A stretch of 64,000 nt of DNA from Alphaproteobacteria bacterium (GCA_965221125.1 CBDCRW010000004.1:1024001-1088000), one strand, 5' to 3'. Shown: positions 15,143 through 54,218, numbered from the stretch's first letter. A program made the numbers and translations. The notes: generated from the sequence alone by a model not told the origin.

Positions 15143-15233
15143 GACACGGGCCCCGGGAAATGCCAAGGACATCGATCCGCCGTTGCACCATGACCGGCGC
15201 CGCGGCACATCGGATCGAGAACGCGGGCGGAGC

Positions 15234-18521: not shown

Positions 18522-18645
18522 TGCCGGCACTCGTGCACCTGATCCAGCCTTGTGCCGGCGGACGGATCCGCCGGGCGATCGCCGCGTTCGGCGCGAAGCC
18601 TGCCGAATCCGGTTCGCAGTCGCATGGAAATAGTTGAGGAGACAC

Positions 18646-19119: not shown

Positions 19120-19137
19120 GCGCGAGGAATCGCTGAC

Positions 19138-20073: not shown

Positions 20074-20189
20074 ATGCATCCAACCCTTACCGCCGAGCCT
20101 CCGACAAGGGAACGACGGGATCGACAGCGTGGCCGAAGAGCGAGGGCTCATAGCCCGCGGCAACTAACCAATACCAGGGAGTAGCAACG

Positions 20190-23127: not shown

Positions 23128-23161
23128 ACTCCCCGCCAGGAAATCGTCCCGGAGCCCGATC

Positions 23162-35824: not shown

Positions 35825-37036
35825 TTGCAGCAGCAAACGAAAGCAACGGTTCGCGCGACGAGGCTGTGCGGGATCGTCGCTGCGGCCACCGTCGTCTGGC
35901 TCTGCGCACTTTCGCTCGCAGTCGAGGCTGCTGCGCCGTCGGTGGAGGATGTGCGCGTGGATCGGTACGGCGACGGGACGCGGCTCGTCGTGGAACTGAC
36001 CGGAGCGGTTGACTTTCAGGTCTTCGCTCTGGCCGGGCCGGAGCGGCTGGTGATCGATCTGTCGCCGGTGCGCTGGGTACTGCCGGATCGCACTCTCACC
36101 ATCGGCCGTGACGGCGTGGCTCAGATCCGGTTCGGCCAATTCCGGCCCGATACCTCGCGCATCGTGATCGACCTGGACCTGCCGCTCATCCTGGGCAGTG
36201 CGCAGTGGCTTGAAGCCGACGCAGTCTCCAGGAACCCCTACCGCCTGATCCTCGATCTCGCTCCCGTACCCGCGTCGGCGTTTCTCGCCACCGTCCGCGT
36301 TCAGCCATCGGATCCTGCGCCGCTGCCAAGGTTGAAGCCGCTGCCGCCATCCCTCGTCCGCCTCATCGCCCTCGACCCCGGCCATGGAGGGCGCGATCCC
36401 GGGGCGGTCTCGTCGGGTGGTGTACAGGAGAAAGTTATCGTCCTGACCTTTGCGCGTGAGCTTCGCGACGTTCTCCAGGAAACCGGTCGCTATCGCGTGG
36501 CAATGACCCGGGACAGCGACCGCAAGGTCGGGCTCTGGCAGCGCGTGGCATTCGCCCGCAATTCCGGCGCGGACGTCCTCCTCTCAATTCACGTAGACCG
36601 CGTGCATGACCGCCGGGTGCGCGGAGCCTCGGTCTACACCCTGTCCGAGGAGGCCTCCGACGCCGAGACAGCCGAGCTCGCCAGGTTCGAGAACAAAGCT
36701 GACATCGCCGCCGGTATCGAGGCGCCGGAGCAGCTTGATCCCGATGTCGCTGCGGTTCTTGCTTCGATGGAGCAGCAGGGAACCATGAACTGTTCCGTTG
36801 TACTTGCAGGACTGCTGGTCCCCGCGCTCGGCGATGTGGCTCCCCTCGTCAACCGCTCCCACCGAATGGCGGAGTTCCGCGTGCTCAAGGCACCGGATGT
36901 CCCGTCGGTCCTGATCGAGCTCGGCTTCTTGTCCAACGAGCAGGATGCCGAACGCCTGAAGAGCGTCAATCACAGGAGGGCGCTGGCCGTAGCGATCCTC
37001 AAGGCTGTCGACGAGTATTTCCTGGAACCTTGCTGA
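35825..37036 (+). CDS. amiC: N-acetylmuramoyl-L-alanine amidase (AMIN + Amidase_3)
   Basis: AMIN motifs (TRLVVEL, PERLVIDL, IRFGQF..SRIVIDL); IALDPGHGGRDPGA, EK, LSIH, VLKAPDVPSVLIELGFLSN. Confidence 0.92.
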   Translation: MQQQTKATVRATRLCGIVAAATVVWLCALSLAVEAAAPSVEDVRVDRYGDGTRLVVELTGAVDFQVFALAGPERLVIDLSPVRWVLPDRTLTIGRDGVAQIRFGQFRPDTSRIVIDLDLPLILGSAQWLEADAVSRNPYRLILDLAPVPASAFLATVRVQPSDPAPLPRLKPLPPSLVRLIALDPGHGGRDPGAVSSGGVQEKVIVLTFARELRDVLQETGRYRVAMTRDSDRKVGLWQRVAFARNSGADVLLSIHVDRVHDRRVRGASVYTLSEEASDAETAELARFENKADIAAGIEAPEQLDPDVAAVLASMEQQGTMNCSVVLAGLLVPALGDVAPLVNRSHRMAEFRVLKAPDVPSVLIELGFLSNEQDAERLKSVNHRRALAVAILKAVDEYFLEPC

Positions 37037-37717
37037 GCGTGCGCCATTGAGACCGGTCGAATTTCTCCGCCTCATCGTGCCAGCCCTCGCTGGAAGGAAC
37101 CTGCCATGCTGCGAACCACAACAGTCCGCCGGCGAGACGACGAGCCTCGGCGCGATGACACCCCTGGCGAGCGAGCCCGTTCGCTCCAAACGGCTTCGGT
37201 CGACGGTGCCGGGCACGTGTTTCACGTTCCGAACCCGCTGGTGCCAGATCGCGCCGCCAGTCTCGCTCTACGGTGCCGAAGTTCGCAATACTACGACGTT
37301 TCCATCTTCAGGAAACGCTGCAGCGTACGCACTTCTTCTTGCATGCATAGCTCAATAGCGCTAACGTATATTGGCTGTAAAATCAGCATTGGACTGAGAC
37401 ATTCCTGCGATTTGGTAGAAGCAAATACTCGCGACACTGTATCAATCAGTCGATCAAGATGAGTGGAGTCGAGTGTGGTAGTCTTGGGCGCTATACACGG
37501 AAGTATAAGGTTGGGGCGTGTCGAAGAGAGCGCCGGCTACGTTCATCTCTCGGCCAAAAGAACTGGGAAGGAGTTGGGCGATTTATGCATTTCCCGGATA
37601 CGCGGTTGCACCGCGGTAACGGCATCATCCCTTGACGCGGTGTGTCATGACTCTTTCGAATGAAAGGTCAAGTTTTCATCCAATGACTGGTTACGACAAG
37701 TCCATAGGTGCGGATCG

Positions 37718-38815
37718 ATGAGCGGGGATCGAATGCCGGGATACGCCAGACCCAGAGAGCCGATTCCGGCTGCGGCATCGCACAGCGAGCCGCGGTCCTC
37801 CCTGGCATGGCTGCGTGGTGCCGGTTTCGACAGCGCACTCATATTCGGTGGAATCTCTCTCGCGCTGCTCTGTGGAGCCGCGATCCTTTACGAGCCGTCC
37901 TGGTTCTACCCGATCCTGGTGGTCGATCTCTGGGTGCTGGGATATCACCACGTGATCTCCACCTACACGAGGCTCTGCTTCGACAGGGCGAGCTTCCGTG
38001 AGCACCGGTGGATGATCGCCTACCTCGTCCCGGTCATTGCCGCAGTCACCGTTTTGCTTGCCTGGACGGTCGGGATCTGGGCCATCGTAACGATCTATTT
38101 CTATTGGCAATGGTGGCACTACACGCGGCAGAGCTGGGGAATTTCACGCGCCTATCGCCGGACGGATCCAAACAGTCTCTACGAGGACGGATGGCTCGAC
38201 CAGGCGATCTTCTTCGCGATGCCGGTCTACGGAATCCTGCTTCGCTCCAGCCAGGATCACGAGCATTTCATCGGCATGGAACTCTGGACGTTTCCGGTCC
38301 CGGAGTCGGTCGCCAGTACCGCGGGCTACGTCATGGGGGCGCTGCTTCTGGTTTGGGCTGGACGGCGTCTGGTGGCCCTGTGGCGCGGACGCCTTGCCAC
38401 CGTCCACACGCTCTACATGCTGACTCACTTCGCGATCTTCGGCCTCGGATACGTCTGGATATCCGACATCACTCTGGGATGGCTGATGATCAACATCTGG
38501 CACAACTACCAGTACATCCTCTTTGTCTGGATGTTCAACAACAAGCGTTTTGCACGAGGGCGGGATCCGAATGCGCGTTTTCTGTCGTATATCAGCCAGA
38601 GTGGACGGTTGTGGCTGTACTTGCTGGTATGTCTTGCTATCACCGGTGCCTTCTATTGGGGGGTACTGCGGACCATAGACTGGTTGCTCTTCGCGGGGTT
38701 CTCGGCGACGATCGTTCTGTATCAGATCATCAACTTCCATCACTACGTGGTGGACGCGCTGATCTGGACAAAGCGCGGGCGCGGTACGTCAAGCGCCTCG
38801 GCAACCGCCAGTTGA
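37718..38815 (+). CDS. Polytopic membrane protein with four His motifs (possible non-heme metal enzyme)
   Basis: Multiple TM segments; GYHHVISTYTR, WQWWHYTRQSWG, WHNYQY, NFHHYVVDALIW. Confidence 0.8.
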   Translation: MSGDRMPGYARPREPIPAAASHSEPRSSLAWLRGAGFDSALIFGGISLALLCGAAILYEPSWFYPILVVDLWVLGYHHVISTYTRLCFDRASFREHRWMIAYLVPVIAAVTVLLAWTVGIWAIVTIYFYWQWWHYTRQSWGISRAYRRTDPNSLYEDGWLDQAIFFAMPVYGILLRSSQDHEHFIGMELWTFPVPESVASTAGYVMGALLLVWAGRRLVALWRGRLATVHTLYMLTHFAIFGLGYVWISDITLGWLMINIWHNYQYILFVWMFNNKRFARGRDPNARFLSYISQSGRLWLYLLVCLAITGAFYWGVLRTIDWLLFAGFSATIVLYQIINFHHYVVDALIWTKRGRGTSSASATAS

Positions 38816-39047
38816 AAAGAAGCCACCGCAAGAGAAGATGCACGTGCGATGAAGGATCTTCTATCGAACATTACAGTCGAGCAATGCGCCTATGTTTACT
38901 GCTCGATCAGCCCCGAATCGCTTGAATGAAAGTCCTTTCGTAAAGCCGCCGCACGAGTGCATGAAGCCGGCCGCTGCCCGGGACCGCTGCTTCGGTCGGA
39001 GGCCACAACAAGAGAGTCGATTATGGAACGGAGAGTCGCAGACAGTG

Positions 39048-39923
39048 ATGCGTGATTGTATTTCCTCCCGACGCGCAACGGACGTAATTCTCGCGCCCGC
39101 GACGGCTCGATTCGTCTGTTGCGCGAGCACCGGCCGCACCGCGACGATGTTTCTGGCGGAGTGCCTTGACCGACTGCCGGACGTGGTGGGGCTGCACGAG
39201 GGCCATCAGCTGGGTGCCGGGCGAGTTCCGCGACTGCCCCTGATCAATGTTCACAACCGCAAGGCTTGGCACGACCCGGACTACGCCGACCGGCTCGTCG
39301 CTGAGAAGCGCGACTTGGCTGCCCTCAGCGCCGCCGCTGACGGAGCGCGACTGATTGTCGACGCGGCCTTCTACAATGCGCCCCTGGTCGAGGCGATTGC
39401 CAGACGCCACCCGGACGCCTTGCTGTTCGTGATCTTCCGCCGCTGCGAGGGGTTCGTTCGATCGGCGACGATCGTGAGGGGCGAGGACCTGCAGCCGGCA
39501 GGTTGGCCGGATCTGTCCAAGCCGCTCACAAACCGCGAAAAGTTTATCTCGCTCGGCAGGCTCAAGCCGGAGTTAACTCACAGGGATCACGCGTCATGGT
39601 CGGCATGGTCCGCCATCCAGCGCAACACCTGGCTCTGGACGGCAGTCAATGGACACCTTCACCGGTTCGCTCGCGACAACGCGAATTGCCATCGGTTCTT
39701 CTTCGAGGACCTGGTCGAAAGACCGGAGAAATTCTGGACAGACTTGCTGCAGCAGATGGAGGTTCTCTCCCCTGCAACGCTTTCCCGATGCCTTGAGTTT
39801 TCGGGATCGAAGATCAATCAGCGCCAGTCCTACCAGATCGGCCGCGTCGCAAGCTGGAGTGCGGCGGAACGGGCATTCTACGCGGAACGAGCACGCCCCC
39901 TGGAGGACGAAATCTATGGCTGA
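39048..39923 (+). CDS. Sulfotransferase-like P-loop protein
   Basis: STGRTATMFLA (5'-PSB-like), LHE, VIFRRCEGFVRS (3'-PB-like R...S), FFEDLV. Confidence 0.65.
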   Translation: MRDCISSRRATDVILAPATARFVCCASTGRTATMFLAECLDRLPDVVGLHEGHQLGAGRVPRLPLINVHNRKAWHDPDYADRLVAEKRDLAALSAAADGARLIVDAAFYNAPLVEAIARRHPDALLFVIFRRCEGFVRSATIVRGEDLQPAGWPDLSKPLTNREKFISLGRLKPELTHRDHASWSAWSAIQRNTWLWTAVNGHLHRFARDNANCHRFFFEDLVERPEKFWTDLLQQMEVLSPATLSRCLEFSGSKINQRQSYQIGRVASWSAAERAFYAERARPLEDEIYG

Positions 39924-40167
39924 CTCACTGGAGGCGCGCATTATCGAAATCATCCAGTCGACATTGCGTCATGAGAGCGGCAATGCGGAACTGACCCTTG
40001 GTCCTTCAGCCTCGATGGAGACGGTCGGCGAATGGGATTCTCTCTCTTTCATGAGCGTCTTTTGCGCGGTCAACAAGGCCTTCGATATCGATCCCGATTT
40101 CGATGACGCGGTGCACTACATATCGGTCGCATCTCTTCATCGTTATCTGGAAGCAGTGACCGTCTGA
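39916..40167 (+). CDS. Acyl/aminoacyl carrier protein (DltC-like)
   Basis: 83-aa acidic protein with phosphopantetheine site GEWDSL; overlaps both neighbours. Confidence 0.88.
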   Translation: MADSLEARIIEIIQSTLRHESGNAELTLGPSASMETVGEWDSLSFMSVFCAVNKAFDIDPDFDDAVHYISVASLHRYLEAVTV

Positions 40168-41693
40168 TGTCCGGTCAAGGCGGTCGCAAGGCACTCCTCG
40201 CGCGGATGCAGATAACTATCGACCGCTACGCCCAGCGAACCGCCGTTCGTGCGCCCGGAGAAAGCCTGAGCTACGGCGATTTCTCCCGGATGGTCGGGAG
40301 GCTCTGCCTCGAACTGCGGAACCCGAAGCGCGCGCAGGACGGCCCCGTCGGATTGCTGCTGGATCGCTCGGCGACGGCCTATGCCGCCATGTGGGCTGCC
40401 ATCGCTCTCGGCCGCCCGTACGTTCCGCTGAACGCCAAGTACCCGCCGAGCCGGCTGCGGAGCATCCTGAGGCAGGCAGGTGTCGACGTCACGGTGTGCA
40501 CGCAAGCCAACCGGGGCTTGGCGACCGGCCTTGGCATCGCATCGGACGATACCGTCGTGGCGGACACCGACCTACCGGTCGACGAATTGGCGGGCGGTGC
40601 AATCGACTGGGGTGTAAGCGACGAAGATCAGGGGATTGCGTACATCCTCTTCACCTCGGGTTCGACGGGCGAGCCGAAGGGCGTACCCATCTCCTACGAC
40701 AATCTCGCGAGCTTCATCGAGAATCTGGGCGCAGTCATCGATTACAGACCCGAAGACGTGTGCTCGCAGTTCTGCGAACTCTCCTTCGATCTCGGCGTGC
40801 ACGAAATATATCTCTCACTTCTGAACGGATGCACCTTGTGCCCGGCCCGACAAATCGATCTCTTCAACCCCGCTCCATTTGTGGCGAATAACAGAATTAC
40901 CGTCTGGGTATCGGTCCCGTCGTTGGCGCGCGTCGTGCTCCAACACCGCGGTGCCGACCACGAGTCTCTCGGCACGCTCCGACTGAGCATGTTCAACGGC
41001 GAGGCGCTGACCCACCAGCTTGCCAGAGACTGGAACAGGGCGGCGTGCGGCACCGAGATCTGGAACACCTATGGGCCGACCGAGTGCACTGTCGCCGTCA
41101 CGGCCCAGCGCTGGGAGGACCATCCCGACCTTTCAGAATCCGGCGTCGTCTCGATCGGGACCGCCTTTCCGGATTGCACGGCTGCGCTGCTCGTGGACGA
41201 AGAAGTCGTCCCCGTTTCTCCTGAACGGAACGGCATCGTCGGCGAGTTGCTGCTGGCGACACCGCAGCGCTTTGACGGCTACCTCGATCCGGGCCTGCCC
41301 TCACCGTTCATCGCGGACAGCAAGGGCCTGCACTTTTATCGCACGGGCGATCGCGTTCGATCGAGAGGGGGACGGCTCTACTACCTTGATCGGCTCGATC
41401 TTCAGGTAAAGATCGGCGGCCACCGAATCGAACTCCTGGAGATCGAGCATCGGTTGCGAAGGCGACTGGAGTCGGACGCGCTCGCCGTCATCGCCCATCC
41501 GCCCCGGCGTCCGACCGAGCTGATCCTGTTTCTTGTCGGCGACCGCGAGACACCGAAACTAACCAGCCAGGAACTGGGCCTTCCCAGCTACATGTTGCCC
41601 CAGCGGACCTTCGTGATCGATGCTCTCCCTCTCACAGCACACGGGAAACTCGACCGACACGCCTTGCATGAGCGCATCGCACCGAACGCCTGA
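40167..41693 (+). CDS. Stand-alone amino acid adenylation enzyme (DltA-like)
   Basis: YILFTSGSTGEPKG, SFDL, VWVSVPS, NTYGPTECTVAVT, YRTGD, QVKIGGHRIEL, LPLTAHGKLDR. Confidence 0.92.
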   Translation: MSGQGGRKALLARMQITIDRYAQRTAVRAPGESLSYGDFSRMVGRLCLELRNPKRAQDGPVGLLLDRSATAYAAMWAAIALGRPYVPLNAKYPPSRLRSILRQAGVDVTVCTQANRGLATGLGIASDDTVVADTDLPVDELAGGAIDWGVSDEDQGIAYILFTSGSTGEPKGVPISYDNLASFIENLGAVIDYRPEDVCSQFCELSFDLGVHEIYLSLLNGCTLCPARQIDLFNPAPFVANNRITVWVSVPSLARVVLQHRGADHESLGTLRLSMFNGEALTHQLARDWNRAACGTEIWNTYGPTECTVAVTAQRWEDHPDLSESGVVSIGTAFPDCTAALLVDEEVVPVSPERNGIVGELLLATPQRFDGYLDPGLPSPFIADSKGLHFYRTGDRVRSRGGRLYYLDRLDLQVKIGGHRIELLEIEHRLRRRLESDALAVIAHPPRRPTELILFLVGDRETPKLTSQELGLPSYMLPQRTFVIDALPLTAHGKLDRHALHERIAPNA

Positions 41694-41706
41694 CAGGGCT
41701 TCATTC

Positions 41707-42837
41707 ATGTTCCGCGTCGTCCTGTTGGCCGGATGTGCTGCCCTGATCTCAGGTCTTCTCTGGCTCGACGGAAACCGGGCCGGGCCGGCGAATTCGATGG
41801 GCCGCTGCAACCTGCTGCTCTCCCAAGCGGGCGAACCGGCGGCAGACGTTCTCATAGTCGGCAGCAGCAGGATCGGGGTGGCTCTTGACCCCGTGGCTAT
41901 GGAGCACATCCTGAGCGCGGAACTCGGTCGCCGGGTCCGCGTCGACCGTCTGTCTCTCGGCCGCAATCCGCTGAGGACGATGAGCGGGCTTCTGGAGAAC
42001 TATCTGGAGGCGCGCGGATCTCCCGCGGTCGTGGCACTCGAAATCATGTTCATGACCGAACGCAGCGTCAACCGCCTGGCCCAACGCGGCCTCGCGCTTG
42101 CCCCGGAAGACTACAACTACTTGAGGGACGTCAACCTTCTCCGCTTTGAGCAACTTCTCAGCCAGCCGTCCATCGCCATGCCGTTCACGAGAAGTGAGAG
42201 TGTTCTCAGTCTTTGGAGCCAACGCCTCAGAGGCGTTGCCCTGCGGTCGGGTGCCCTGATCTACCAGGCGCTTCGGGATCCGAACCAGGAATGGGAACTC
42301 TCCGCCTGCGCGCGCGACGACTGGAGACGCGAGGCTGAGTGGCCATCCGACTTCTCATTCAGTTACGGAGAGTTCGAACCGGATACCGGCTTGGCGGACC
42401 TTGTCCAGGCACTGGAGATGGATGTCGCCCGGCAAGCGGAAGCCCGCGCATTGAAGGACTGGCAGTTCAACAGCCCCGGCGACATTGTCTATCCATACGA
42501 TTTGGGGGCTGCCTATAGACGGGGTGAGGTCAATGTCCTCGTGTCGATGATCGAGCGTGTCCTCGAACGGGATGCCGAAATTGTAGTCCTTCCCTTGCCG
42601 CTATTCGGGTACGCACTCGACCGTACGGAATTGCTCGATTTTGTTACGACGCGCTTTGAGCGGCACGTTCATCTCTTCGACCTCTATGGCGAAATCAGCG
42701 CGAATTTCGATCCACTCTGGTACGACGATGCTCATGTCGAACGCTCGCCGGTCGGGGCATTGACCACAGCACTCATGGCGCAACGCCTGCTGAAATCGCG
42801 AGCGCTGGTCCCGGTACCGTCAGGGCCCGATGATTGA
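41707..42837 (+). CDS. SGNH-like extracytoplasmic acyltransferase (DltD/AlgJ-like)
   Basis: N-terminal TM; IVGSSR catalytic Ser block; C-terminal WYDDAH (DxxH); adjacent to an MBOAT gene. Confidence 0.75.
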   Translation: MFRVVLLAGCAALISGLLWLDGNRAGPANSMGRCNLLLSQAGEPAADVLIVGSSRIGVALDPVAMEHILSAELGRRVRVDRLSLGRNPLRTMSGLLENYLEARGSPAVVALEIMFMTERSVNRLAQRGLALAPEDYNYLRDVNLLRFEQLLSQPSIAMPFTRSESVLSLWSQRLRGVALRSGALIYQALRDPNQEWELSACARDDWRREAEWPSDFSFSYGEFEPDTGLADLVQALEMDVARQAEARALKDWQFNSPGDIVYPYDLGAAYRRGEVNVLVSMIERVLERDAEIVVLPLPLFGYALDRTELLDFVTTRFERHVHLFDLYGEISANFDPLWYDDAHVERSPVGALTTALMAQRLLKSRALVPVPSGPDD

Positions 42838-43912
42838 TCCGGTTTCCTTCCTCGTCTTCATCCTGGTCTCGGTAGGTCTGTCTCACACGATTTGGCCCTA
42901 CAGCGCACTGAACCGACTGTTTTGGGGATGCATGCCGGGCGTGGTTCTCCTTTTCATGGTTCACCCGCTCGCATTGCTGTTCGCGGTGACCTCGTTCGCC
43001 GCCTGCGGGAGCTTGTACCTGGTCGGCCGGATCGCCGGAAGCTCCCGCGTCAAGGCCCGCATACCTTACTTGATCCTGCTGCTCCTTTTCGTGCCCGACG
43101 TCACCGGAACCCTCACGACCAATCCGATTCTCTGGCTCGGGAGTGCGTTCTTCATCATCCGCCAGATGATGACTGTGGCGGCAGCTCTCAAGGAACAGAG
43201 AGACATTTCTAATTTCGTTCCCGGACTTCTTCTGGCGACGTTTTTCTTCGCTGCCTTACCGTCCGGTCCCGTGTTCAACGGCTTGCGCATCTGGAACACG
43301 CTGAAGGCCAGGAACAGGCCGAATTATCCCGAGGGTCTGTTCCGACTCTTCGAAGGCTTCGCCTACTTGTTCGCCTTCGCCGGCATCGCGAGTGTCGCCA
43401 TCGAACACGCCGGCACCCTCGGCGGTGCCCTGGCCGAAGACGGCAATTGGGCAGCCTCCTGGATCCTGCGCATCCTGGTCGATCCGCTTCTCGGCTTCGG
43501 TTTCCTGTTCTCTACCTTCTACGGTTACTCACGCATGGCTGAGGGCACGGCTCTGCTCTTCGGCTTCGAGGTGCCGCAGAATTTCAACAAGCCGCACCTG
43601 GCCACGGACCTGGCCGACTTCTGGAAGCGCTGGCACCGTTCGATGGCGGAATTCGTCATGCAGTACATCTATTTGCCTCTACTCGTCTCGACCAGGCATG
43701 CCAAGTTCGCACTGATCGCCGCCTTCGTCTTCATGGGCCTGTGGCATGAGTTTACACTCGGCTTCTTGATTTGGGGTCTTGGCCACGGTCTTGGACTCGC
43801 TGTCGTCCTGCCTTGGGCGAGCCGTCGCCGTATCCCGGCAGGGGTAATTCGCGTCTTGTCCCTGGCCTACGTGCTAGGGCTCTCGGCCGTTGCCCATGGA
43901 GTCTGGAAATGA
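42830..43912 (+). CDS. MBOAT family O-acyltransferase (DltB/AlgI-like)
   Basis: SGP, FYGYSRMA, PQNFNKP, DFWKRWH, catalytic MGLWH, WGLGHG. Confidence 0.93.
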   Translation: MIDPVSFLVFILVSVGLSHTIWPYSALNRLFWGCMPGVVLLFMVHPLALLFAVTSFAACGSLYLVGRIAGSSRVKARIPYLILLLLFVPDVTGTLTTNPILWLGSAFFIIRQMMTVAAALKEQRDISNFVPGLLLATFFFAALPSGPVFNGLRIWNTLKARNRPNYPEGLFRLFEGFAYLFAFAGIASVAIEHAGTLGGALAEDGNWAASWILRILVDPLLGFGFLFSTFYGYSRMAEGTALLFGFEVPQNFNKPHLATDLADFWKRWHRSMAEFVMQYIYLPLLVSTRHAKFALIAAFVFMGLWHEFTLGFLIWGLGHGLGLAVVLPWASRRRIPAGVIRVLSLAYVLGLSAVAHGVWK

Positions 43913-44025
43913 CGTTTCGTCGCTGGCTACGGCTGGTCTACCTGGCCGTGTGCATCTTGGCAGTGCTGGCGTGGATCTGGTTCGGACGGTTCGAGGCAAT
44001 CGAGGTGCCGTATGTGCAGTTCTGA
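43909..44025 (+). CDS. 38-aa DltX-like membrane peptide with C-terminal Tyr motif
   Basis: ATGA overlap with the MBOAT stop; MTFRRWLRLVYLAVCILAVLAWIWFGRFEAIEVPYVQF*, one TM helix plus terminal PYVQF. Confidence 0.82.
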   Translation: MTFRRWLRLVYLAVCILAVLAWIWFGRFEAIEVPYVQF

Positions 44026-44133
44026 TGTCGTACCCCCTCGTTACACTTCGGGACCCTTCCGGTGTCGCACGCGCCGCAAACGCGGACGTGGTTCCTCCTC
44101 GCGCCCGCGCCGACATGCCGGGAACAGTGCCGG

Positions 44134-44238
44134 TCAAGTTGGAAGGCGCATGAGTTGGTCGACCGACAGCACCAAGATTCCGAACATCAGGTGGCAATGA
44201 GCCTTGACATGGCAGCGCGCATGATCATGGCGGCGAAT
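44134..44238 (-). pseudogene. C-terminal remnant of an IS (DDE) transposase
   Basis: Minus-strand translation IRRHDHARCHVKAHCHLMFGILVLSVDQLMRLPT* resembles the VRGxxKVxCHLMFGIL..DQLMRL end of IS5/IS1182-like transposases (recognised from memory). Confidence 0.6.
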
Positions 44239-47200
44239 CTAGTCCGGTGCGTCCATAATCAGCGCCTGAAGTTCGGCCACAGTGGGGATCTCGTGTTCAT
44301 GAGCGCGCCGGGTCATGCGCTGGAAGGCCAGCGCTTCCTTCGCCGTATCGGCGTAGCTCGGCGCGTGGTTGTCGATCAGGCTCTTCAAGACGTCTTCCGC
44401 CTCGGGCTCGGGCCGGCTGGCGATGGCATGGATGGTGCGCTCGATGAACGCGCTCGCGCCCCCGGGATCGTTCCAGCCGCCGCCGGTGCGGCCACTTCCG
44501 GGCCATTGGACCATCCTGGGCCAGCGTGTGCCGAAGACCTCCACGACGAACCGGAGAGTATCGAGCGGCACTTCGCCGAAGAGGAACGCGCTTCCGATCC
44601 GCTCCCGGACGAATGCGATGAAGTCCGGGCTGTTTTCCGCCGCGTCCAGCAATGCGTCCCTGCATCCCTCCAGGTCGACTACGCAGGCCATCGACAGCCA
44701 CGACAGCTTCGCGCACTCATCCCGGTGCACCCTGTCACGGCAATCGACGATCAACCGGCGCACCGCGTCGCGCGGCGCGTCCTCGAGCGCGCAGGTCATC
44801 AGTTCCCTCTGCGCCTGCCCGTGCAGTCGGGGATAGGCACGCAGCCATTCGAGCGAGAGGCGGCCGGCCAATTCGTGGAAGCCGCTCCCGTAGTCTCCGC
44901 CGAGGCTGTCGAGCTCACGGACGAACTCTGCATTGCATGCGAGCTGGGGCTCGATGCTCGCCCGGAAATGCCGCTCCATGTCCTCCACGCCCGTGAATAC
45001 CATCTCCCTCAGCGCGAATTCGATATCGATCTGTCCGCCGGAGACGCTCATCGGCACACGCCGCCAGGCCATGTAGGCGGCGTCCAGTGCCGCCCGCCCG
45101 ATCGTGTCGAGGGGCAGGCCCCGTTGAAGCGCCACGTCGACACCGCAGATCAGCGGCGCCTCCGCCTCGTGCTCGTTGCCCGCACAGTGGATTTGCGCTA
45201 TCGCCGAAGCGTGGGGCAGCTCGGTGCGTCCGAGTACGGCGACGAAGCCGTTCAGAACCCGCTCGCAGAGGTCCTCACCGAGAAAGTCCCGCAGCCGCTC
45301 GCGGGGAGCGAGCGAGGGGTCGCCGTTCACGTTTTCGCCGAGCCTGTCGAACCGGCCCAGATAGACGGCGGCAGGCAGCGCCAGGACCCTGAAGTCCCCG
45401 GCCGCAATGCTGTCGGCCTGCCCGGCCAGCGCCGCACGATGCGCTTGCCTGTGGACTTGCACCGCCGTCCCGGCACCGGAGCCGCCGTCCCTGTCCCGTG
45501 CATTCTGCAGAGCCGCCAGGCTCAGGGCCGGCCCGCCGCTCACCAGCCCGGCATTATGGAGTACCGGGCGGGCAGCCTCGATGATGCCCCGCCACGTCTC
45601 GGGATCGATCGAGCCGTTCTCCGAACGAATGCGAAGCGCCTCTGCCAGTTCATCGTGGTCCGCCGCCGCCGCACCGATACCGAGGCCTGTCTTCCTGAGT
45701 TCCAGGCAGGCCGACCGGACGCTGCCCGGGCGAGGTGTCGTCAGCGCATGCTCCAGAACCGCGGCGCGCAGCGCGCGTTCGCGGCCGAATATCTCCGCCA
45801 GCCGTTCCCGTGGGGCTGCGGCGCCGGCCTCGCCGGTCCAGCGAATCCACGCCCAGACCCGGTCCGCCGCGACGGCCGGATCGGCTTCCAGCACCCGGGC
45901 CGCAAGATGTCTTCCCATATCCGTGAGCGTCTCCCTCTGCCAATCTTCGGCCTCCGCGAGCGCGGCGGGCGCGCCCTCGGCGATGAAGTCGAGCAACGCG
46001 GCCAGTCGGGCCGTGTCGAGAGCGCCGAACGGTTCCCGGCGCGAAGATGCCGCCGCCTGCGGCTCCGTGTCGTCCTCTCCGCCAGGCTTCGCTTCCATGC
46101 GACCGGCGGACGGAGACCACCTTGCAGTTCCATCGTCCAGTTCAAGGCTCCCGAGTATCTCACAGGCCAGCCGTGCGGAGCCGGCATCGCCCAGGTCGAG
46201 AAGCCGAAGCGCCGCGGCTTCGTCATCGGCCGGGGCGTTCGCGTCCAGCGACCAGAACGCAGCGGCGCGCTCCCGGTAATCGCGGTCTCGATCGAACAGG
46301 ATGCCCTCCAGCAACCGGCCGTCTTCCCCGGACAGGTCCGTCCCGCCCATCGCTTCGATCAGGAACGCCGAAAGCTGCGCATGTGGGCCGGGCTCGGCCA
46401 GAACCCCGACGATGTCGTCCTTGAGCTCCCGCCTCATCAGTCCCGAGCCCCGGTGAACGCCCCGGTCCTCGGCGTCGAAGCACGGGTCCTCTCCCGAGCG
46501 CTCTTTCAGCGCGGCGAGAAGAGTGCGGGCCCGGTCCGGGGCAAGCGTCTCCATCTCGCCCTCGCGCAGCACCGCATGGGGATCCGCCGCGAGGCAGCGG
46601 GCGGCCAGGGCCGGGCTGAGGCGCGCAATCCAGGCGTGGAGCCCGCGCAGCGCCGCGGGAACGCTCCCGCCCGAGTCAAACAGCGAAAGGATGCCGCCGC
46701 CGGTGGGACCCTCGGCAACACAACGGGACAGCCATGCGGCCCCGAGAAATTCGGCGATCGCGCGGTGCAGGCAGGAGAAGCGCCCCTCCCCGTCGGCCTG
46801 GAACAGCCGTGTTCCGAGCGCGTCGGCGGCCGCGCCGGCGAAGGGGAGCCCGCGGACATCGGAAACGTTCAGGAACCCTGCCGGGGTCTCCGCGACGTTT
46901 CCGTCGTGCACGCCCATGAGATCGCACAGAAGCAGCGTCGCGCAGATCGCACCGGAGGCCAGCAGCAGCTCGTCCCCGTCGCTGCGGACCGCAGGAACGA
47001 TGCCCGGGCTGGCGTCGTGAGCGAGCATCGCGCGGCACCCCTGGGCGAAGAGCTCGGCGCGGTTCCGGGGAATTCCGCCCCCGGCCCGCGCGATCTCGCC
47101 CAACAGACGCAGGTTCAGCGGATTCATGCAGGCGCGGATCAGCGCCCGGCTCTCCAGCTTCTCCAGGAGAGCGTGCACCTCGACGCCGGGAAACTCGCGC

Positions 47201-47688
47201 TCCAGGAACGCACGGGTTTCAGCGTCGTCGAATGGTATCAGGTAGAACGTCTTGAGTTCGCGGCCATACTCGTTCTCGATCCTCGCGCGGTCCACGGCTT
47301 CGCGCCACTCGGCGCTGCGGCAGGACACCGTGAATTCCGGTTTTCCCGCCCTGACCAGTTGACCCAGCACTGCATCGAGAGCGCTGCCCCGGTCGGGCGA
47401 CGCGATCTCGTCGAGGCCGTCCACATGCACACGTCCGAATTCCGGCAGCAGGGAGCCGGGATCGTCGGCCTTCAGCAGCCTGGCCGCGTGAATGTATGTC
47501 TCGCCATGCTTCTCGCACACTTGGCGCATGAGCGTGGTCTTTCCCATGCCGGCGTCGCCGAGAAGCGCCACCGGATCGTACAGGTTGCCGAGCGCGTTCA
47601 GGTCGATACCCCTGATCTCGCCATCGCAATCCTCTACGAACACTTTCCTTTCGATCCACATCGTCATTGTCTCCTTCGTTGCGTTCAT
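44239..47688 (-). CDS. STAND/NACHT-like NTPase with long helical C-terminus (candidate anti-phage sensor)
   Basis: Walker A LLGDAGMGKTT, Walker B VHVDGLDE, sensor VSCR, NPLNLRLL, winged-helix HRAIAEFLGA. Confidence 0.82.
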   Translation of the reverse strand: MNATKETMTMWIERKVFVEDCDGEIRGIDLNALGNLYDPVALLGDAGMGKTTLMRQVCEKHGETYIHAARLLKADDPGSLLPEFGRVHVDGLDEIASPDRGSALDAVLGQLVRAGKPEFTVSCRSAEWREAVDRARIENEYGRELKTFYLIPFDDAETRAFLEREFPGVEVHALLEKLESRALIRACMNPLNLRLLGEIARAGGGIPRNRAELFAQGCRAMLAHDASPGIVPAVRSDGDELLLASGAICATLLLCDLMGVHDGNVAETPAGFLNVSDVRGLPFAGAAADALGTRLFQADGEGRFSCLHRAIAEFLGAAWLSRCVAEGPTGGGILSLFDSGGSVPAALRGLHAWIARLSPALAARCLAADPHAVLREGEMETLAPDRARTLLAALKERSGEDPCFDAEDRGVHRGSGLMRRELKDDIVGVLAEPGPHAQLSAFLIEAMGGTDLSGEDGRLLEGILFDRDRDYRERAAAFWSLDANAPADDEAAALRLLDLGDAGSARLACEILGSLELDDGTARWSPSAGRMEAKPGGEDDTEPQAAASSRREPFGALDTARLAALLDFIAEGAPAALAEAEDWQRETLTDMGRHLAARVLEADPAVAADRVWAWIRWTGEAGAAAPRERLAEIFGRERALRAAVLEHALTTPRPGSVRSACLELRKTGLGIGAAAADHDELAEALRIRSENGSIDPETWRGIIEAARPVLHNAGLVSGGPALSLAALQNARDRDGGSGAGTAVQVHRQAHRAALAGQADSIAAGDFRVLALPAAVYLGRFDRLGENVNGDPSLAPRERLRDFLGEDLCERVLNGFVAVLGRTELPHASAIAQIHCAGNEHEAEAPLICGVDVALQRGLPLDTIGRAALDAAYMAWRRVPMSVSGGQIDIEFALREMVFTGVEDMERHFRASIEPQLACNAEFVRELDSLGGDYGSGFHELAGRLSLEWLRAYPRLHGQAQRELMTCALEDAPRDAVRRLIVDCRDRVHRDECAKLSWLSMACVVDLEGCRDALLDAAENSPDFIAFVRERIGSAFLFGEVPLDTLRFVVEVFGTRWPRMVQWPGSGRTGGGWNDPGGASAFIERTIHAIASRPEPEAEDVLKSLIDNHAPSYADTAKEALAFQRMTRRAHEHEIPTVAELQALIMDAPD

Positions 47689-47839: not shown

Positions 47840-50342
47840 TCAGAGCTCTAGCTCCAGTCCGAGTTCCATTTCGAGGGGCTTGTCCCGCGCAGGCTGCGGG
47901 GGCCGGCGATCGCGGGTTTCCCCGTCCTTTCCGCCCCGTTCGGCCGGCGAACGGGACGGCGCGGCGTGCTCGGCTGCCGGCCTTGCGGCGGCATTGCCGG
48001 GCGTTTCGGCGCCCTTCGCCGGCGCGTCCGGCGCGACGGCCTCCAGCGCAGCGATCCGCTCGCCGGTGGTGGTCTCAAGCTGCTCCCGCAGCCTTGCCGC
48101 GTCGTCCGTCACCAGTTCCGCGCGATAGCGGGCCCGGCTGATCTCCACGTAGAAGCTCTTGGCCGTGGTCAGGTGAGGGTGGCCGGCCTCCATCGCCGCG
48201 ATCACGCTGTCCACCGTGCGCCCCTGGAACGCGTGCACCGTAGACGCGTGGGCGTGATCGAGGTGGCGCAGCTGCGGATCGCCGGGGCCCAGCACCAGCG
48301 CGCGCCCGTCCTCCAGCCGGAACGAGACGCGGCCGTCCACGACCGAGACCACCTCCGCAGTCCGGCTGTTGACGAGCCCGAGGTCCCTGTCGTTGCGGGT
48401 CCAGCGCACGCGGTCGCCCGCGCGCAGCTCGACCGGTTCGACGCGGTACGCCTCGCTCCCGCCGTGACGGCCTGCCACGTGGCCGGGCTTCCAGGCGACG
48501 GTGCCGCCGTGTGCGTCCGCCAGCACCACGGTGTGGCTGCGGCGGTCCACCTCGAGCACCCTGCGCTCGTCGCCCTTGCCGACGCCGAGCCGCCTGTAGG
48601 GGCGGTGGAAGGCCACGACATCGCCCGGCGCATAGTTGGCGGCGAGCGCCTTCTCGGCCCGCGTGTAGCCTCGGGAGACCAGCTGCTCGCCCTGGAACGC
48701 CGGACCGTGGATCGCGCCCTCTCTCGCGAGCCGCTCCCTGATATGCCCGTTGATGGCGACGCGAAGCTCGTGGCTCGGCGCCATCACGCCGGTGTTCTCA
48801 CGCTCGTCGGGCGAGAGCCTGAGCCAGCGGGCGGCGACGGCGCCCGCGATGTTGTCCGCCTTCACCTCCGCCACGGCCGGCCCCAGCTTCTCGAAGGCCT
48901 TGCGGATGTCGCCCGCGACGCTGGCCTCGACCGCCTCCTTCAGCGCAGGTTCGCGCTGGCGCATGATCTCGTCCATCACCGCCGTCCGCATGCCCGCCCG
49001 CTGCAGCTGGGCGAAGGGCTTGCCGGCATCGACGGCGTCGAGCTGCTTCTCGTCGCCGACCAGTACGACCCTGGGAATGCGCAGTGTGGCGGCGATCCTG
49101 AGCAGGTCGCGCGCCTGCACGGTGGACGCGAGAGAGCCCTCGTCCACCACCAGCACGGTCTTCGAGAAGGCGTCGCGCATGTGGCGGGCGCCCCGTCGCG
49201 TGAGCCTGCCCCCGGCGATGCCCGCGTTGCGGGCGAGAAAGCCCTGCAGGGTCTCGCTCTCAATGCCCGACTCCGTGGCCAGCGTCTGCACCGCCGAAGC
49301 GGACGGCGCGAGGCCGAGCATGCGGTAGCCGCTCTTCTCCGCGAGCGCACGCGCCCGGTTGAGCATGGCGGTCTTGCCGGTGCCGGCGTAGCCCTGGACG
49401 CCCACGACCCGGTCCTTCGACGAGAGGATCGCGGTGACGGCCTGTTTCTGGCCGTCGGTGAGCGGCCCGTTGTTCAGGTGCTGGTGCACCTTGCGGCGCC
49501 GCATCAGAACCTGTCCCCTGTCCCGGCCAGTGCGCATGAGGCCGATGGTCTCCCGCTCGTCGGCGATCGCGGTATCGGTGGTCAGGCCCTCGCCACCGGC
49601 AAATGCAGGAGCGGCATGCAGGCGACCGTCGCGCTGGAGAGCGTCGATGGCCTGTCCGGCGGCCTCGGCGGAAACGGCGCCGGGCTTCCAGGCGAGAGCT
49701 GCGGCCAGCAGGTCCGAACGCGCAAACACCGCCTCGCGTTCGCAGACGTGTTCCGTCGCCCAGGACACCGCCTGCATTGCCGGGCCGGCGCCGCGTGCCG
49801 GATCCCTGGCGGGTCCCCGGTTCGTTTCTCCGGCCCCGGCAACGTTCCGGTCACGGGCGACCTCGGCCTTCGGCACCTCCGCATCGACGGCAGGCGAGAG
49901 GCGGCGCCGGGCCGCTTCGGCCACCGCATCGGGCGAGAAGCCAAGCGACGCCGCCTGTTCGCGCCAGCTCGCCTGAAGCGCCTCCCTGTCCACCTCGCGC
50001 TTGTGGGCGCGCGTCATCAGCGCCGCGCGCTCGGCCAGCTGCGGATTGCTCGCCGTATCGCCGAGGCCCCGGGCCTCCATCGCAGCCTCGATCTCCGCAC
50101 GCCTCGTCGAGAAGGCCTCGACGATCCCGCGGGGCACACCCGCGATCTCGAAGCGCCCGTCGGCGTGCGTCTTCTCGATGCCGTAGCCGAGAGCCGCCAG
50201 CTCCCGTGCCAGCTCGCTCCGGTACACCATGCCGATCAGCTTCTGGCGCCGGTAGAGCGGCTCGTTCGACATCGTCCGCCATTTTCCGTCGTCGCCCTGC
50301 ACCATGTTGGCGACCACGGCATGGGTATGGAGCTGGGGGTCG
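47840..50342 (-). pseudogene. trwC: MOBF relaxase-helicase (TrwC/TraI), 3' part after the insertion
   Basis: DPQLHTHAVVANM, FEIAGVP..FSTRRAEI, helicase motifs VQGYAGTGKT, VVDEGS, LVGDEKQL, HAHASTVHAFQGRT, FYVEISRAR. Confidence 0.92.
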
Positions 50343-50392
50343 GCACCAGGCTTTCAACTGCACGTCGTTCATGCGTTGAGCAGCAACGCTTT

Positions 50393-50701
50393 GTGGTGAC
50401 GCACCCGTTTCATCCTCTTCTCGGACGTGAGTTCGAACTGATCGAGACCACGTCGATGCTTGGGGTGGGGCTGGTCCATTACACGGCTGACGACGGGACG
50501 CTGCGCACGATTCGTCAGGCTTTTACCAGCGTTGCAGCGGTGGATCCGTTTGCGCGGGTAGCGGCGGGCCGGTCGGCGTTCCGTGTCTCGGATCTGCTGA
50601 CGTTGTCGGCGTTGCTGGATGGCTTGGGCGGCGGCGAGAGGGTTGGAAAGGAGGCGGCCGGCGGCGCGAGCGGTGTCAAGGAGATTTTGCCGCATGTGTA
50701 A
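50393..50701 (+). CDS. Small accessory protein (DUF5372/Y4bD-like)
   Basis: VVTHPFHPLLGREF...DPF..AAGRSAFRVSDLL; corresponds to the 3' end of track ORF 47966-50701. Confidence 0.7.
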   Translation: MVTHPFHPLLGREFELIETTSMLGVGLVHYTADDGTLRTIRQAFTSVAAVDPFARVAAGRSAFRVSDLLTLSALLDGLGGGERVGKEAAGGASGVKEILPHV

Positions 50702-50883
50702 GAGCGTTTTTGTCCATACCTGGCGGTCGGAGGTTGTCGTATGGACTGGAAGGGCGGTCATGATCGACCAATATACACGGTATTTCGGCCTGTTTTCGTC
50801 GATATGGGGCAAGAAAGGGTTTGATGCGATGCCAGGGGTGTGCATAAATATACTTACATTCCTCCGCCGCCGGAGCCCACGCA

Positions 50884-51345
50884 ATGGCCAGACGCCCCGC
50901 CGACGCCAAGACCCGCTCCCTCAAGGAGCACGGCTGCCTCAACCCGAACGCGGAGACGGTGCGCGACGAGCTGTTCCTGTCCAACGCGTTCTTCGACCCG
51001 CGCGACCTGGTCCAGGTCAGGTACGAGATGCTGCGCCGTGTGCGCGAGGACGGCGTGCCGGTGAGCCACGCCGCGGCCAGCTTCGGCGTCTCGCGGCCCA
51101 CCTGGTACCAGGCGCAGCGCGCCTACGATGCGGGCGGGCTGCCGGGCCTGCTGCCGGAGAAGCCGGGACCCCGCCGACGCCACAAGCTCAGCGACGAGGT
51201 GGTCGAGGCGCTGCTCGCGGCGAAGAGCGAACAGCCGGAGTTGACCGCCGCCGCGCTGGTCGATCTGGTGCGCGCGCGCTTTGGCATCACCATCCATCGC
51301 CGCAGCATCGGCCGCATGCTCGCGCAGGTAAAAAAAAGCCGATGA
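50884..51345 (+). CDS. Helix-turn-helix protein of the recombinase element
   Basis: FFDPRDLVQVRYEMLR, AAASFGVSRPTWY, GLLPEKPGPR, IHRRSIGR. Confidence 0.85.
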   Translation: MARRPADAKTRSLKEHGCLNPNAETVRDELFLSNAFFDPRDLVQVRYEMLRRVREDGVPVSHAAASFGVSRPTWYQAQRAYDAGGLPGLLPEKPGPRRRHKLSDEVVEALLAAKSEQPELTAAALVDLVRARFGITIHRRSIGRMLAQVKKSR

Positions 51346-51644
51346 AGTGCCGGCCGCCGCTCGCCGGGCTGCTCCCGCTGGAACATTCCGCCTATGGGGA
51401 CGGCTACGAGCGGCTGCGCCGTCATGCGGTCGAGCCCGGCACAGAGCACAACCGTCACGGGCTTGCCGTGGTGGCGTTGCGCGGCGTCGCGGCCTGGCTG
51501 CACGCCGTGGCCGAGTTGCCCGCCCCGCCGGCCGCCGTTTGCGCCGGCGCCTCGACCGAGCCGCTGCCCGGCGGGGTCGAGAAGTCGCTGATCGACATTC
51601 TTCTCGCGATGCTCAAGGGCCATATGGAAGGAGAGTTGGCATGA
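51342..51644 (+). CDS. Hypothetical accessory protein (100 aa)
   Basis: ATGA overlaps at both ends; YERLRRHA...GLAVVALRGVAAWL. Confidence 0.7.
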   Translation: MKCRPPLAGLLPLEHSAYGDGYERLRRHAVEPGTEHNRHGLAVVALRGVAAWLHAVAELPAPPAAVCAGASTEPLPGGVEKSLIDILLAMLKGHMEGELA

Positions 51645-53716: not shown

Positions 53717-53730
53717 TATGAAGCGTACTC

Positions 53731-54218
53731 TCGAGGTTGCGCGAGACCTCGTGCCTGAACGTTGCGGCCACCATCTTCTGGCCGCCCGTGTGAACGAGCA
53801 GCCCGCTCTCGGGATCCCTGATGCGGGTCTGGATCGTCGAGGCCTCCAGCCAGGCGAGCGTGCGCCGCACCGCGGCGTCGTGGGCCGCCGCGACGGCCGC
53901 GTCGCCGCCCAGCATGGCCACGATGGAGACGGACTTGGGCGCCGAGAAGGTGAGGTCCCGCCCTGGGCGGTGCGTGACGCTCCCGTCCCTTTCTCGGCGC
54001 CCGAGCCGGCGCCCCGTGCCGTCGGGCACCGTGCCCTCCATGACGTCCTGGAACACGCCGGGCTCGACGGGGCCGCGAAGCTCCAGCGCCTCGGCGCCCC
54101 GGCCCGCCCAGGCGCTGGCGTCGAGGTGCCGGGAATCGCCCTTCGCGTAGTATCCGTCCCGCTCGAAGTACGACACGCCCTGGGCGGCGGAGGCGATCGC
54201 GCCGATGGAGACGACCAT
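53731..54218 (-). pseudogene. trwC: MOBF relaxase, 5' part before the insertion
   Basis: SYFERDGYY catalytic tyrosines, HRPGRDLTFSAPKSVS, AHDAAV, FRHEVSRNL; start overlaps the coupling-protein stop. Confidence 0.92.

Follow-up and report, generated by a model that had tools for sequence, protein, structure and literature searches.

A conserved seven-gene cassette in a diderm bacterium that may encode a Dlt-type aminoacyl relay with an added sulfotransferase-fold protein and an unnamed membrane protein

A 64,000-nucleotide stretch of DNA labelled Alphaproteobacteria bacterium (GCA_965221125.1, CBDCRW010000004.1:1024001-1088000; the whole stretch is hereafter called the window) carries seven genes, all on the + strand at positions 37718-44025, five of which resemble the parts of the teichoic-acid D-alanylation pathway and two of which encode further proteins. 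The locus raises the question of whether this is a D-alanylation operon or a different pathway built along the same lines, and whether the two further genes belong to it. From our ORF (open reading frame) and family analysis we consider, with a probability of about 60%, that the cassette encodes a carrier-protein-dependent acyl relay that would work by analogy with Dlt, to which two parts have been added, namely a sulfotransferase-fold protein (g2) and a His-rich membrane protein (g1). The features of the locus are as follows:

37037-37717, + strand: AT-richer, non-coding leader of 681 bp upstream of g1 (55.5% GC)
37718-38815, + strand: g1, His-rich membrane protein of 365 amino acids with ten spans, in no named family
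39048-39923 (the ORF opens at 38892), + strand: g2, cytoplasmic sulfotransferase-fold protein of about 291 amino acids, as judged from its fold model
39916-40167, + strand: g3, carrier protein of 83 amino acids with an invariant serine in a WDS motif, from its PP-binding score and alignment
40167-41693, + strand: g4, stand-alone amino-acid adenylation enzyme of 508 amino acids, AlmE-like, from its AMP-binding match
41707-42837 (the ORF opens at 41620), + strand: g5, probable DltD/AlgX-type SGNH-like transferase of 376 amino acids with an N-terminal membrane anchor, from its motifs
42830-43912, + strand: g6, membrane-bound O-acyltransferase (MBOAT) of 360 amino acids, closest to DltB (PF03062)
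43909-44025, + strand: g7, DltX-like microprotein of 38 amino acids with a single helix, ending in PYVQF, from its conserved motif

The initial annotation had placed a seven-gene block at this position, and we found it there on the + strand, with the boundaries of g2, g5 and g7 corrected. The likely start of g2 is at 39048, giving 291 amino acids, because its relatives align only from about residue 55-75. The relatives of g5 are about 380 amino acids long, and its start was set at 41707 instead of the opening of the ORF at 41620. An 84-amino-acid ORF starting with TTG, which had been put forward for g7, is too long. The genes had also been described as overlapping, and the junction sequences bear this out in part: stop and start overlap by 8 nt at g2/g3, 1 nt at g3/g4, 8 nt at g5/g6 and 4 nt at g6/g7, that is at four of the five junctions between g2 and g7, while g1 and g2 do not overlap and g4 and g5 do so only if the earlier g5 start is used.

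Evidence that these genes form a unit comes from related loci. A profile made from 31 g5 relatives retrieved 14 loci from a species-representative genome collection. One of these, cyanobacterial (L014), was dropped as spurious, consisting of a 50-amino-acid match with an E value of 9e-4 and no match to any other cassette gene; the counts given below cover the remaining 13 loci (L001 to L013). The order g2-g3-g4-g5 is identical in all 13. The g6 gene is present in all 12 loci that extend far enough to include it (L002 stops within g5), and g7 in the 11 loci that extend past g6 (L002 and L009 end earlier). The g1 gene was found in 11 of the 13 loci, upstream on the same strand in eight, divergent in two (L005 and L012) and downstream in one (L011). 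Two loci are of the window's own lineage and for this reason are not independent of it: L001, labelled Alphaproteobacteria, is 98% identical in DNA over 18.6 kb, and L002 shares flanks with the window at 82-90% DNA identity. L002 is labelled Bryobacterales (Acidobacteriota), yet it is syntenic with the window, secretin region included, and a binning or labelling error is likely. The other Alphaproteobacteria-labelled loci come from two metagenome-assembled genomes (MAGs), Tateyamaria and the isolate Seohaeicola saemankumensis CCUG 55328 (L011), and the Gammaproteobacteria-labelled ones from Porticoccaceae, Woeseiaceae, Granulosicoccaceae and one MAG; one Pseudomonadota MAG and two Actinomycetota MAGs complete the set. 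That these are not chance ORFs follows from a GC content at third codon positions of about 0.75 for g1, g4 and g6, and from proteins and a gene order that are conserved across 13 loci of several phyla. All named relatives of the cassette proteins are called "hypothetical", apart from generic labels. A tblastn search for plasmid copies of g5 and g1 gave no match in 72,556 records.

Which amino acid the relay might carry can be approached through the activating enzyme, g4. Its match to the AMP-binding family (PF00501) is above the Pfam threshold (E 1e-62), and it scores 288.4 bits with the amino-acid adenylation model TIGR01733, whose cut-off is 317.4. With the DltA equivalog model TIGR01734 it reaches 221.9 bits, where 559.85 are needed, and so does not qualify as a DltA equivalog. 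When the whole length of g4 is compared with solved structures, domains of non-ribosomal peptide synthetases (NRPS) come first, and DltA structures match with an E value of 6e-53. The best match of residues 152-508 is 4oxi (E 5e-62), which is described in the accessible part of PMC11253843 as AlmE of Vibrio cholerae bound to glycyl-AMP.

Ten positions of the substrate pocket, read by motif mapping, give the code D-L-H-V-M-N-T-V-A-K for the window enzyme as compared to D-L-H-V-F-C-L-I-A-K for AlmE; six of the ten are identical, and C316, L and I of AlmE are replaced by Asn, Thr and Val. The numbering that we assume is the one used for GrsA-PheA, including Asp235 and Lys517. The pattern D[LFV]H[VI][MIV]N[TSNF]VAK is found in 13 of the 14 cassette enzymes (L013 deviates at positions 3 and 4), and the Asp, the Asn, the Val-Ala pair and the Lys are invariant in all 14. 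We take the invariant Asp and Lys to be the equivalents of Asp235 and Lys517, which bind the amino and carboxyl groups. In AlmE, L248 and C316 adjoin the C-alpha and exclude larger residues or D-residues, and the matching Cys269 of Bacillus cereus DltA selects D-alanine (PMC11253843, accessible part). Every one of the 14 cassette enzymes has Asn where AlmE has C316, the residue that this source equates with C269, and thus none has the D-Ala-selecting cysteine. At the position of the Leu beside this Cys in AlmE, Thr, Ser or Asn is found in 13 of the 14 enzymes, and Phe in L004. From these residues we infer that g4 uses an alpha-amino acid that is small and possibly polar (Gly, Ala or Ser); D-Ala is possible although not indicated. 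As to the partner of this enzyme, g3 scores 20.7 bits with the PP-binding family, just short of the Pfam cut-off of 20.8, and its Trp-Asp-Ser motif is invariant in all 14 aligned sequences.

The next question is whether the remaining three proteins could pass such an aminoacyl group across the membrane. The g6 protein is an MBOAT, with 75.6 bits for PF03062 against a threshold of 27 (E 6e-21). With the DltB equivalog model TIGR04091 (LTA_dltB) it gives 90.7 bits for a cut-off of 375, and is not a DltB equivalog by this measure; in a profile search of the PDB, DltB (6bug and 8jem) is the best match at 2e-20, followed by DGAT1 at 2e-5. Both the catalytic H306 and H269 are unchanged in all 11 sequences, and the protein ends in AHGVW, with no tyrosine motif of its own. 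According to the accessible part of PMC12148441, D-Ala leaves DltC through DltB, which attaches it to the invariant Tyr in the FXYXXF motif at the C-terminus of the microprotein DltX; DltX then delivers it to the catalytic Ser of DltD, an SGNH protein that acylates lipoteichoic acid. The other MBOAT pathways described there work without carrier and microprotein and have the Tyr motif at the MBOAT's C-terminal end.

The g7 peptide has a basic N-terminus and one hydrophobic helix, and is 35-39 amino acids long in all 11 loci that contain it. Its end is invariantly E-[AV]-P-Y-[VIL]-x-F, with E32, P34, Y35 and F38 unchanged throughout, as are Y11 and W22. The second of the two invariant tyrosines, Tyr11, follows the basic N-terminus and sits where the helix begins on the cytoplasmic side. 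A prediction of a complex of g6, g7 and g1 gave a score of 0.00, which is uninformative either way.

The g5 protein consists of an N-terminal hydrophobic anchor and an outside domain with GSS(R) and DDxH motifs. Across 31 sequences, the Gly-Ser-Ser motif (S54), D341 and H343 are invariant and D340 is kept in at least 90%; the order of the motifs, GSS first and Asp-Asp-x-His towards the C-terminus, is that of SGNH blocks I and V. Among protein-language-model neighbours, the nearest named Atlas clusters carry DUF1574, LB_356, DltD or Lipase_GDSL_2, with scores of 0.93-0.95, and weak ALGX matches were obtained for 4 of the 31 relatives (best E 0.003). The family has at least 71 matches. From its motifs, g5 is likely an SGNH-type transferase; no significant match to profile hidden Markov models (HMMs) or to PDB sequences was obtained.

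At this point it can be asked whether the cassette is simply an ordinary D-alanylation locus of the dlt/dra type, lowering negative charge as in Dickeya, Pectobacterium and Bordetella, with g1 and g2 as bystanders. The same five functional roles are indeed present, DltB leads the solved matches of g6, the E value of DltA structures against g4 is 6e-53, and dlt genes are known in a few Gram-negatives (accessible parts of PMC5541007 and PMC4448142). We nevertheless regard this explanation as very improbable, since the scores with the curated models fall far short (222 of 560 bits for DltA and 91 of 375 for DltB), g4 is nearer to AlmE and NRPS domains than to DltA and has an invariant Asn in place of the D-Ala-selecting Cys, the gene order is unlike dltXABCD, and g2 is constant in 13 of 13 loci and overlaps g3. 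In line with this, a comparison with characterised D-alanylation loci gave no match, the DltA and DltB scores being below cut-off and the pocket AlmE-like with Asn.

The relay of Dlt type that we prefer instead would proceed in four steps. While gene content, order, conservation, folds and motifs are observed, each chemical step is drawn by analogy with Dlt. First, g4 would activate, with ATP, a small alpha-amino acid of the size of glycine, alanine or serine; second, it would transfer this amino acid to the phosphopantetheine arm of g3, forming a thioester. Third, g6 would take the acyl group from g3 at the cytoplasmic face and transfer it to Tyr35 at the outside end of g7. Finally, g5 would accept the acyl group on Ser54 and esterify a hydroxyl of an extracytoplasmic acceptor. 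In the same scheme, g2 would be a PAPS-type (3'-phosphoadenosine-5'-phosphosulfate) sulfotransferase, most likely sulfating the amino acid on the carrier or else a precursor of the acceptor in the cytoplasm, and g1 would be a membrane enzyme of new fold with a cytoplasm-facing, His-rich site, acting in the same pathway.

The part given to g2 rests on its fold and on its constant place. The AlphaFold2 model has a pLDDT of 91.6, and all the PDB matches listed by Foldseek are sulfotransferases, with 13 chains at E ≤ 1e-3 and a probability of 1.00. They are led by the tyrosylprotein sulfotransferases TPST1/2 (5e-5), followed by the sulfotransferase (ST) domains of CurM and olefin synthase (OLS) and by the mycobacterial Stf9, with sequence identities of 10-14% and TM-scores of 0.4-0.5. 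Of 39 relatives, ten match Sulfotransfer_3 and nine Sulfotransfer_4 at E ≤ 0.01. An N-terminal ASTGRTAT loop resembling a phosphate loop, a His-Glu pair about 20 residues further on, and R131 and S139, eight residues apart, are invariant. As no hydrophobic segment was found in g2, its site of action should be the cytoplasm, in which PAPS is located. The curacin pathway has ST domains working on carrier-bound intermediates. Tyrosine was considered as the substrate, given that the TPSTs head the fold list, and was rejected, the g4 pocket being AlmE-like and small.

Linkage bears on whether g2 and g1 belong to the relay at all. They could be a two-gene module in their own right, serving for instance a sulfolipid, which travels with the Dlt-like genes and shares no substrate with them. 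In favour of such a module, g1 varies in place and strand between loci and is missing from two of them, its family (1250 matches; 2087 representatives) is larger than that of g5, and extra canonical sulfotransferases occur near the cassette in L003 and L005. On the other hand, all 13 loci have g2 directly upstream of g3, and the end of g2 overlaps the start of g3 in the window; moreover, L003 and L004 keep g2 with the cassette while g1 is absent, which argues that g2 goes with the relay rather than with g1. We thus judge an independent module quite unlikely. The first two genes had been expected to co-occur with the MBOAT cassette, and they do, g2 in 13 of 13 loci and g1 in 11 of 13, in flanks that differ by locus.

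What g1 might contribute is suggested by its conserved residues. No Pfam or NCBIfam family matches it, and the Atlas gave unnamed clusters only. Its 25 aligned relatives show no recurrent Pfam match at E ≤ 5, and no extra Pfam domain was detected in the longer ones. One relative is labelled beta-carotene monooxygenase; the corresponding assignment to BCD/Blh was rejected, as no BCD/Blh match occurs among the 25. The family is large, with 1250 matches and 2087 representatives at E ≤ 1e-3. AlphaFold2 gave a model with 11 helices (pLDDT 83, pTM 0.80), for which no fold match was obtained in the PDB (best E 0.98, TM-score ≤ 0.2). The distribution of positive charges, with on average 2.8-5.1 Lys plus Arg in inside loops and 0-0.4 in outside ones, indicates ten spans and both termini inside. 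The initial annotation had described a membrane protein with four His motifs; the His-rich membrane protein is there, and we counted seven invariant histidines (77, 78, 134, 237, 262, 341 and 342) in 25 of 25 relatives, together with invariant Arg137, Gln138, Gln265 and Asp346. By the predicted topology, these residues would lie in the cytoplasmic half of the membrane. g1 looks like a cytoplasm-facing membrane enzyme, which perhaps binds metal.

A further feature of g1 is the arrangement His341-His342-x-x-x-Asp346 (window 38738-38755) at the cytoplasmic end of the last helix, with H-x4-D spacing. This is presumably the spacing of the HX4D motif of glycerolipid acyltransferases, and we note it as a lead only.

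The acceptor of the aminoacyl group is the point at which a different product has to be weighed. Among 98 flanking ORFs of 12 loci, no conserved neighbour able to name the acceptor was found. A target in lipopolysaccharide (LPS) only is argued against by the presence of the cassette in Actinomycetota-labelled contigs, and a pilin has too little support, since tad or secretin genes are near the cassette only in the window lineage and in L011. The relay could instead yield a small sulfated aminoacyl lipid or a released metabolite, with g5 acylating a membrane lipid or a small alcohol, or with g1 as a cytoplasm-facing acyltransferase using the loaded carrier in the manner of AlmG. This would agree with the 12 scanned loci, where no genes for making or exporting a polymer are conserved next to the cassette; with hosts, diderm and Actinomycetota-labelled, that share lipids and peptidoglycan and not LPS; with the closeness of g4 to AlmE of the lipid A glycine pathway; and with the cytoplasm-facing conserved site of g1 and its H-x4-D spacing, if the motif has the meaning that we assume. 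Against it, the characterised bacterial MBOAT/SGNH pairs named in the accessible part of PMC12148441 all act on envelope polymers, no LPLAT-type (AlmG-like) domain occurs in any of the seven proteins, and an acyltransferase role of g1 has no support. For these reasons we hold a lipid or a metabolite to be rather unlikely, and favour a relay that modifies an extracytoplasmic acceptor. Considering that a glycine-type activating enzyme is constantly joined by a sulfotransferase of its own, a surface decoration that has not been described is probable.

Within the favoured relay, one more specific version deserves mention, even if we think it unlikely to be the right one. By this version g2 would sulfate the carrier-bound amino acid (O-sulfation if it is serine-like, N-sulfation if it is glycine) and the relay would export a sulfo-aminoacyl group. 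If true, the surface ester would be anionic or zwitterionic and not cationic, and the charge logic would be opposite to that of D-alanylation. Outside dlt, it would also be the first MBOAT relay to depend on a carrier and a microprotein, and the His-rich membrane enzyme working with it would have a fold absent from the PDB.

Several observations weigh against the relay with two added parts. The Sulfotransfer_3 score of g2 is 20-21 bits, below the Pfam gathering cut-off of 27, and its ASTGRTAT loop, His-Glu pair and Arg131...Ser139 are what we take to be the PAPS-binding positions (5'-phosphosulfate-binding, 5'-PSB, and 3'-phosphate-binding, 3'-PB) and the catalytic ones. The g3 protein is highly divergent, and no solved carrier matched it at E ≤ 1 among PDB sequences. 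The window g5 has no significant match in Pfam, NCBIfam or PDB profile searches and none to PF04914 (DltD). The first position of the g7 motif is Ala or Val, where DltX has Phe. The g1 gene is missing in the DNA of L003 and L004; since L003 ends 428 bp after g7, its g1 could lie beyond that end. Lastly, no genes for glycan, lipid or teichoic-acid synthesis that could point to the acceptor are conserved nearby.

The surroundings of the cassette bear on the kind of host and on how the genes arrived there. The upstream side has a TPR/BON/secretin ORF of 2800 amino acids and genes for a ParA/MinD-like ATPase, a beta-barrel protein of the outer membrane and an amidase with an AMIN domain. On the downstream side are a NACHT-like ATPase, encoded convergently, and genes for a relaxase of TrwC type, a large serine recombinase and a type IV coupling protein. 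As the beta-barrel protein, the secretin and the AMIN-domain amidase adjoin the cassette, the host is taken to be a diderm, which is what had been supposed at the outset and also fits the 98% identical contig labelled Alphaproteobacteria. The 2800-amino-acid ORF (window 22886-31288, + strand) is unusually long for a secretin and a candidate single gene; it combines TPR repeats and a pilus-formation N-terminal domain with five BON domains, and has a secretin domain at its C-terminus. A related secretin/BON ORF is present in L002.

The initial annotation had noted that the block is poorer in GC than its flanks and is preceded by an AT-richer leader at about 37300-37700, and both features are confirmed. 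The GC content is 60.6% in the cassette, 55.5% in the leader over 37037-37717 and 68.6% in the remainder of the window (67.7% in the whole window), and the cassette is lowest in GC among all segments of its size in the window. No Rfam match to a riboswitch or leader RNA was obtained at E ≤ 1 within 36500-44500, and no promoter-like site was found on the + strand of the leader, the promoter and terminator scan being at or below the expectation from shuffled sequence.

The cassette had also been proposed to be horizontally acquired. Horizontal transfer is plausible and not proven: the GC dip, the mobile genes and the patchy taxonomy speak for it. The dip amounts to 5-8 points in the window, L001 and L002 and is smaller in L005, L010, L011 and L013, while in the six loci the cassette has the same GC content as its surroundings, which is against transfer or neutral. 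Also in its favour are mobile genes that adjoin the cassette in the window, in L007 and in L011. In trees of g4 and g5, the Gammaproteobacteria-labelled L008 falls inside an Alphaproteobacteria-labelled clade, with supports of 100/100 and 100/99, respectively, and the Actinomycetota pair is nested among Proteobacteria, on an unrooted and weakly resolved backbone. MAG labels can be wrong, as that of L002 appears to be, and this too is against transfer or neutral.

Some neighbouring genes are worth recording on their own account. The TrwC-type relaxase gene of the window is split (47840-50317 and 53550-54221, - strand) by a 3.4-kb stretch (50342-53731) that holds a helix-turn-helix gene (50848-51345) and the large serine recombinase gene (51332-53716). 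This stretch is absent from L001, where the relaxase is one ORF of 996 amino acids (L001 16134-19124, - strand), and it looks like a recent insertion. The gene that converges on the end of the cassette (44239-47688, - strand), a neighbour of the conjugation genes that is also present in L001, encodes a 1149-amino-acid protein with a weak match to a NACHT P-loop, which from this match may be a STAND-type NTPase. L007 has three tandem tyrosine-recombinase genes (15652-18870) 3.3 kb downstream of the cassette. In L011, an insertion sequence (rve) gene (14515-15330) follows g1, and tad-type pilus genes occupy 15457-20588 (two TadB/C-like genes, an ATPase, an L,D-transpeptidase and a response regulator). 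Near the cassette, L003 (2196-3239) and L005 (20347-21096) have further sulfotransferase genes of canonical type (Sulfotransfer_1 and _3), and L004 (13408-14865) and L005 (12477-13874, immediately downstream) have genes for class-III aminotransferases; the nearness could reflect an accessory role or chance.

How the cassette stands to known systems can now be summarised. With DltXABCD of Gram-positive bacteria it has in common the stand-alone adenylation enzyme, the small carrier, the DltB-like MBOAT, the Tyr-x-x-Phe microprotein, the probable anchored Ser/Asp/His transferase and the tight operon. It differs in its DltA and DltB scores, far below the equivalog cut-offs, in an AlmE-like pocket with Asn, in the motif [AV]PYxxF instead of FXYXXF, and in the order ST-carrier-adenylation enzyme-SGNH-MBOAT-microprotein, with an obligatory sulfotransferase and a His-rich protein of ten helices. 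Its hosts, moreover, are mostly Proteobacteria, and no teichoic-acid genes were seen in the flanks of the window or of the scanned loci. By analogy, the cassette would work like Dlt; neither the curated models nor the pocket residue place it in the dlt family. That a diderm has a Dlt-like relay is no novelty by itself, because dlt-type loci are known in Gram-negatives, in Dickeya and Pectobacterium (PMC5541007) and, as dra, in Bordetella (PMC4448142), each according to the part of the source accessible to us.

The AlmEFG system, which adds glycine to lipid A in V. cholerae, contains, in AlmE, the best solved match of g4 (residues 152-508), with 6 of 10 pocket positions in common, including Asp, Leu, His and Val, and it follows the same logic with a small dedicated carrier (PMC12930378, accessible part). 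The cassette differs from it in having no AlmG-type (LPLAT) transferase; in its place are the MBOAT, the microprotein and the SGNH protein, and the sulfotransferase is present in addition. PatA/PatB, AlgI/AlgJ/AlgX and others, as presented in the accessible part of PMC12148441, likewise pair an MBOAT with a partner of SGNH type outside the cytoplasm and use a tyrosine as acyl shuttle. These systems are acetyl-CoA-dependent, whereas the cassette has a carrier and a microprotein, and its MBOAT has no Tyr motif. To the PAPS sulfotransferases of peptides or carrier-bound substrates (TPST1/2, the CurM and OLS ST domains, and the mycobacterial Stf enzymes), g2 is alike in fold, and it differs from them in standing alone beside a Dlt-like relay, with 10-14% identity and a score below the Pfam cut-off.

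The combination of genes had not been recognised as described, and our full-text searches of the literature did not turn it up, bearing in mind that surveys of DltX-like motifs may list such loci. The novelty lies in a Dlt-type relay that has a microprotein of its own and is served by an activating enzyme resembling AlmE, together with a constant sulfotransferase and an unnamed membrane protein. The constant pairing with a sulfotransferase points to an undescribed envelope chemistry in groups that are common in marine habitats, and the cassette gives a functional context to the large unnamed g1 family (2087 representatives). Seohaeicola saemankumensis CCUG 55328 is a cultured and non-pathogenic carrier of the cassette, in which direct testing is possible. 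Since a cassette that is not dlt has both a carrier and a microprotein, and recurs across Alphaproteobacteria-, Gammaproteobacteria- and Actinomycetota-labelled contigs, the Dlt-type relay appears to be a more general device than teichoic-acid D-alanylation.

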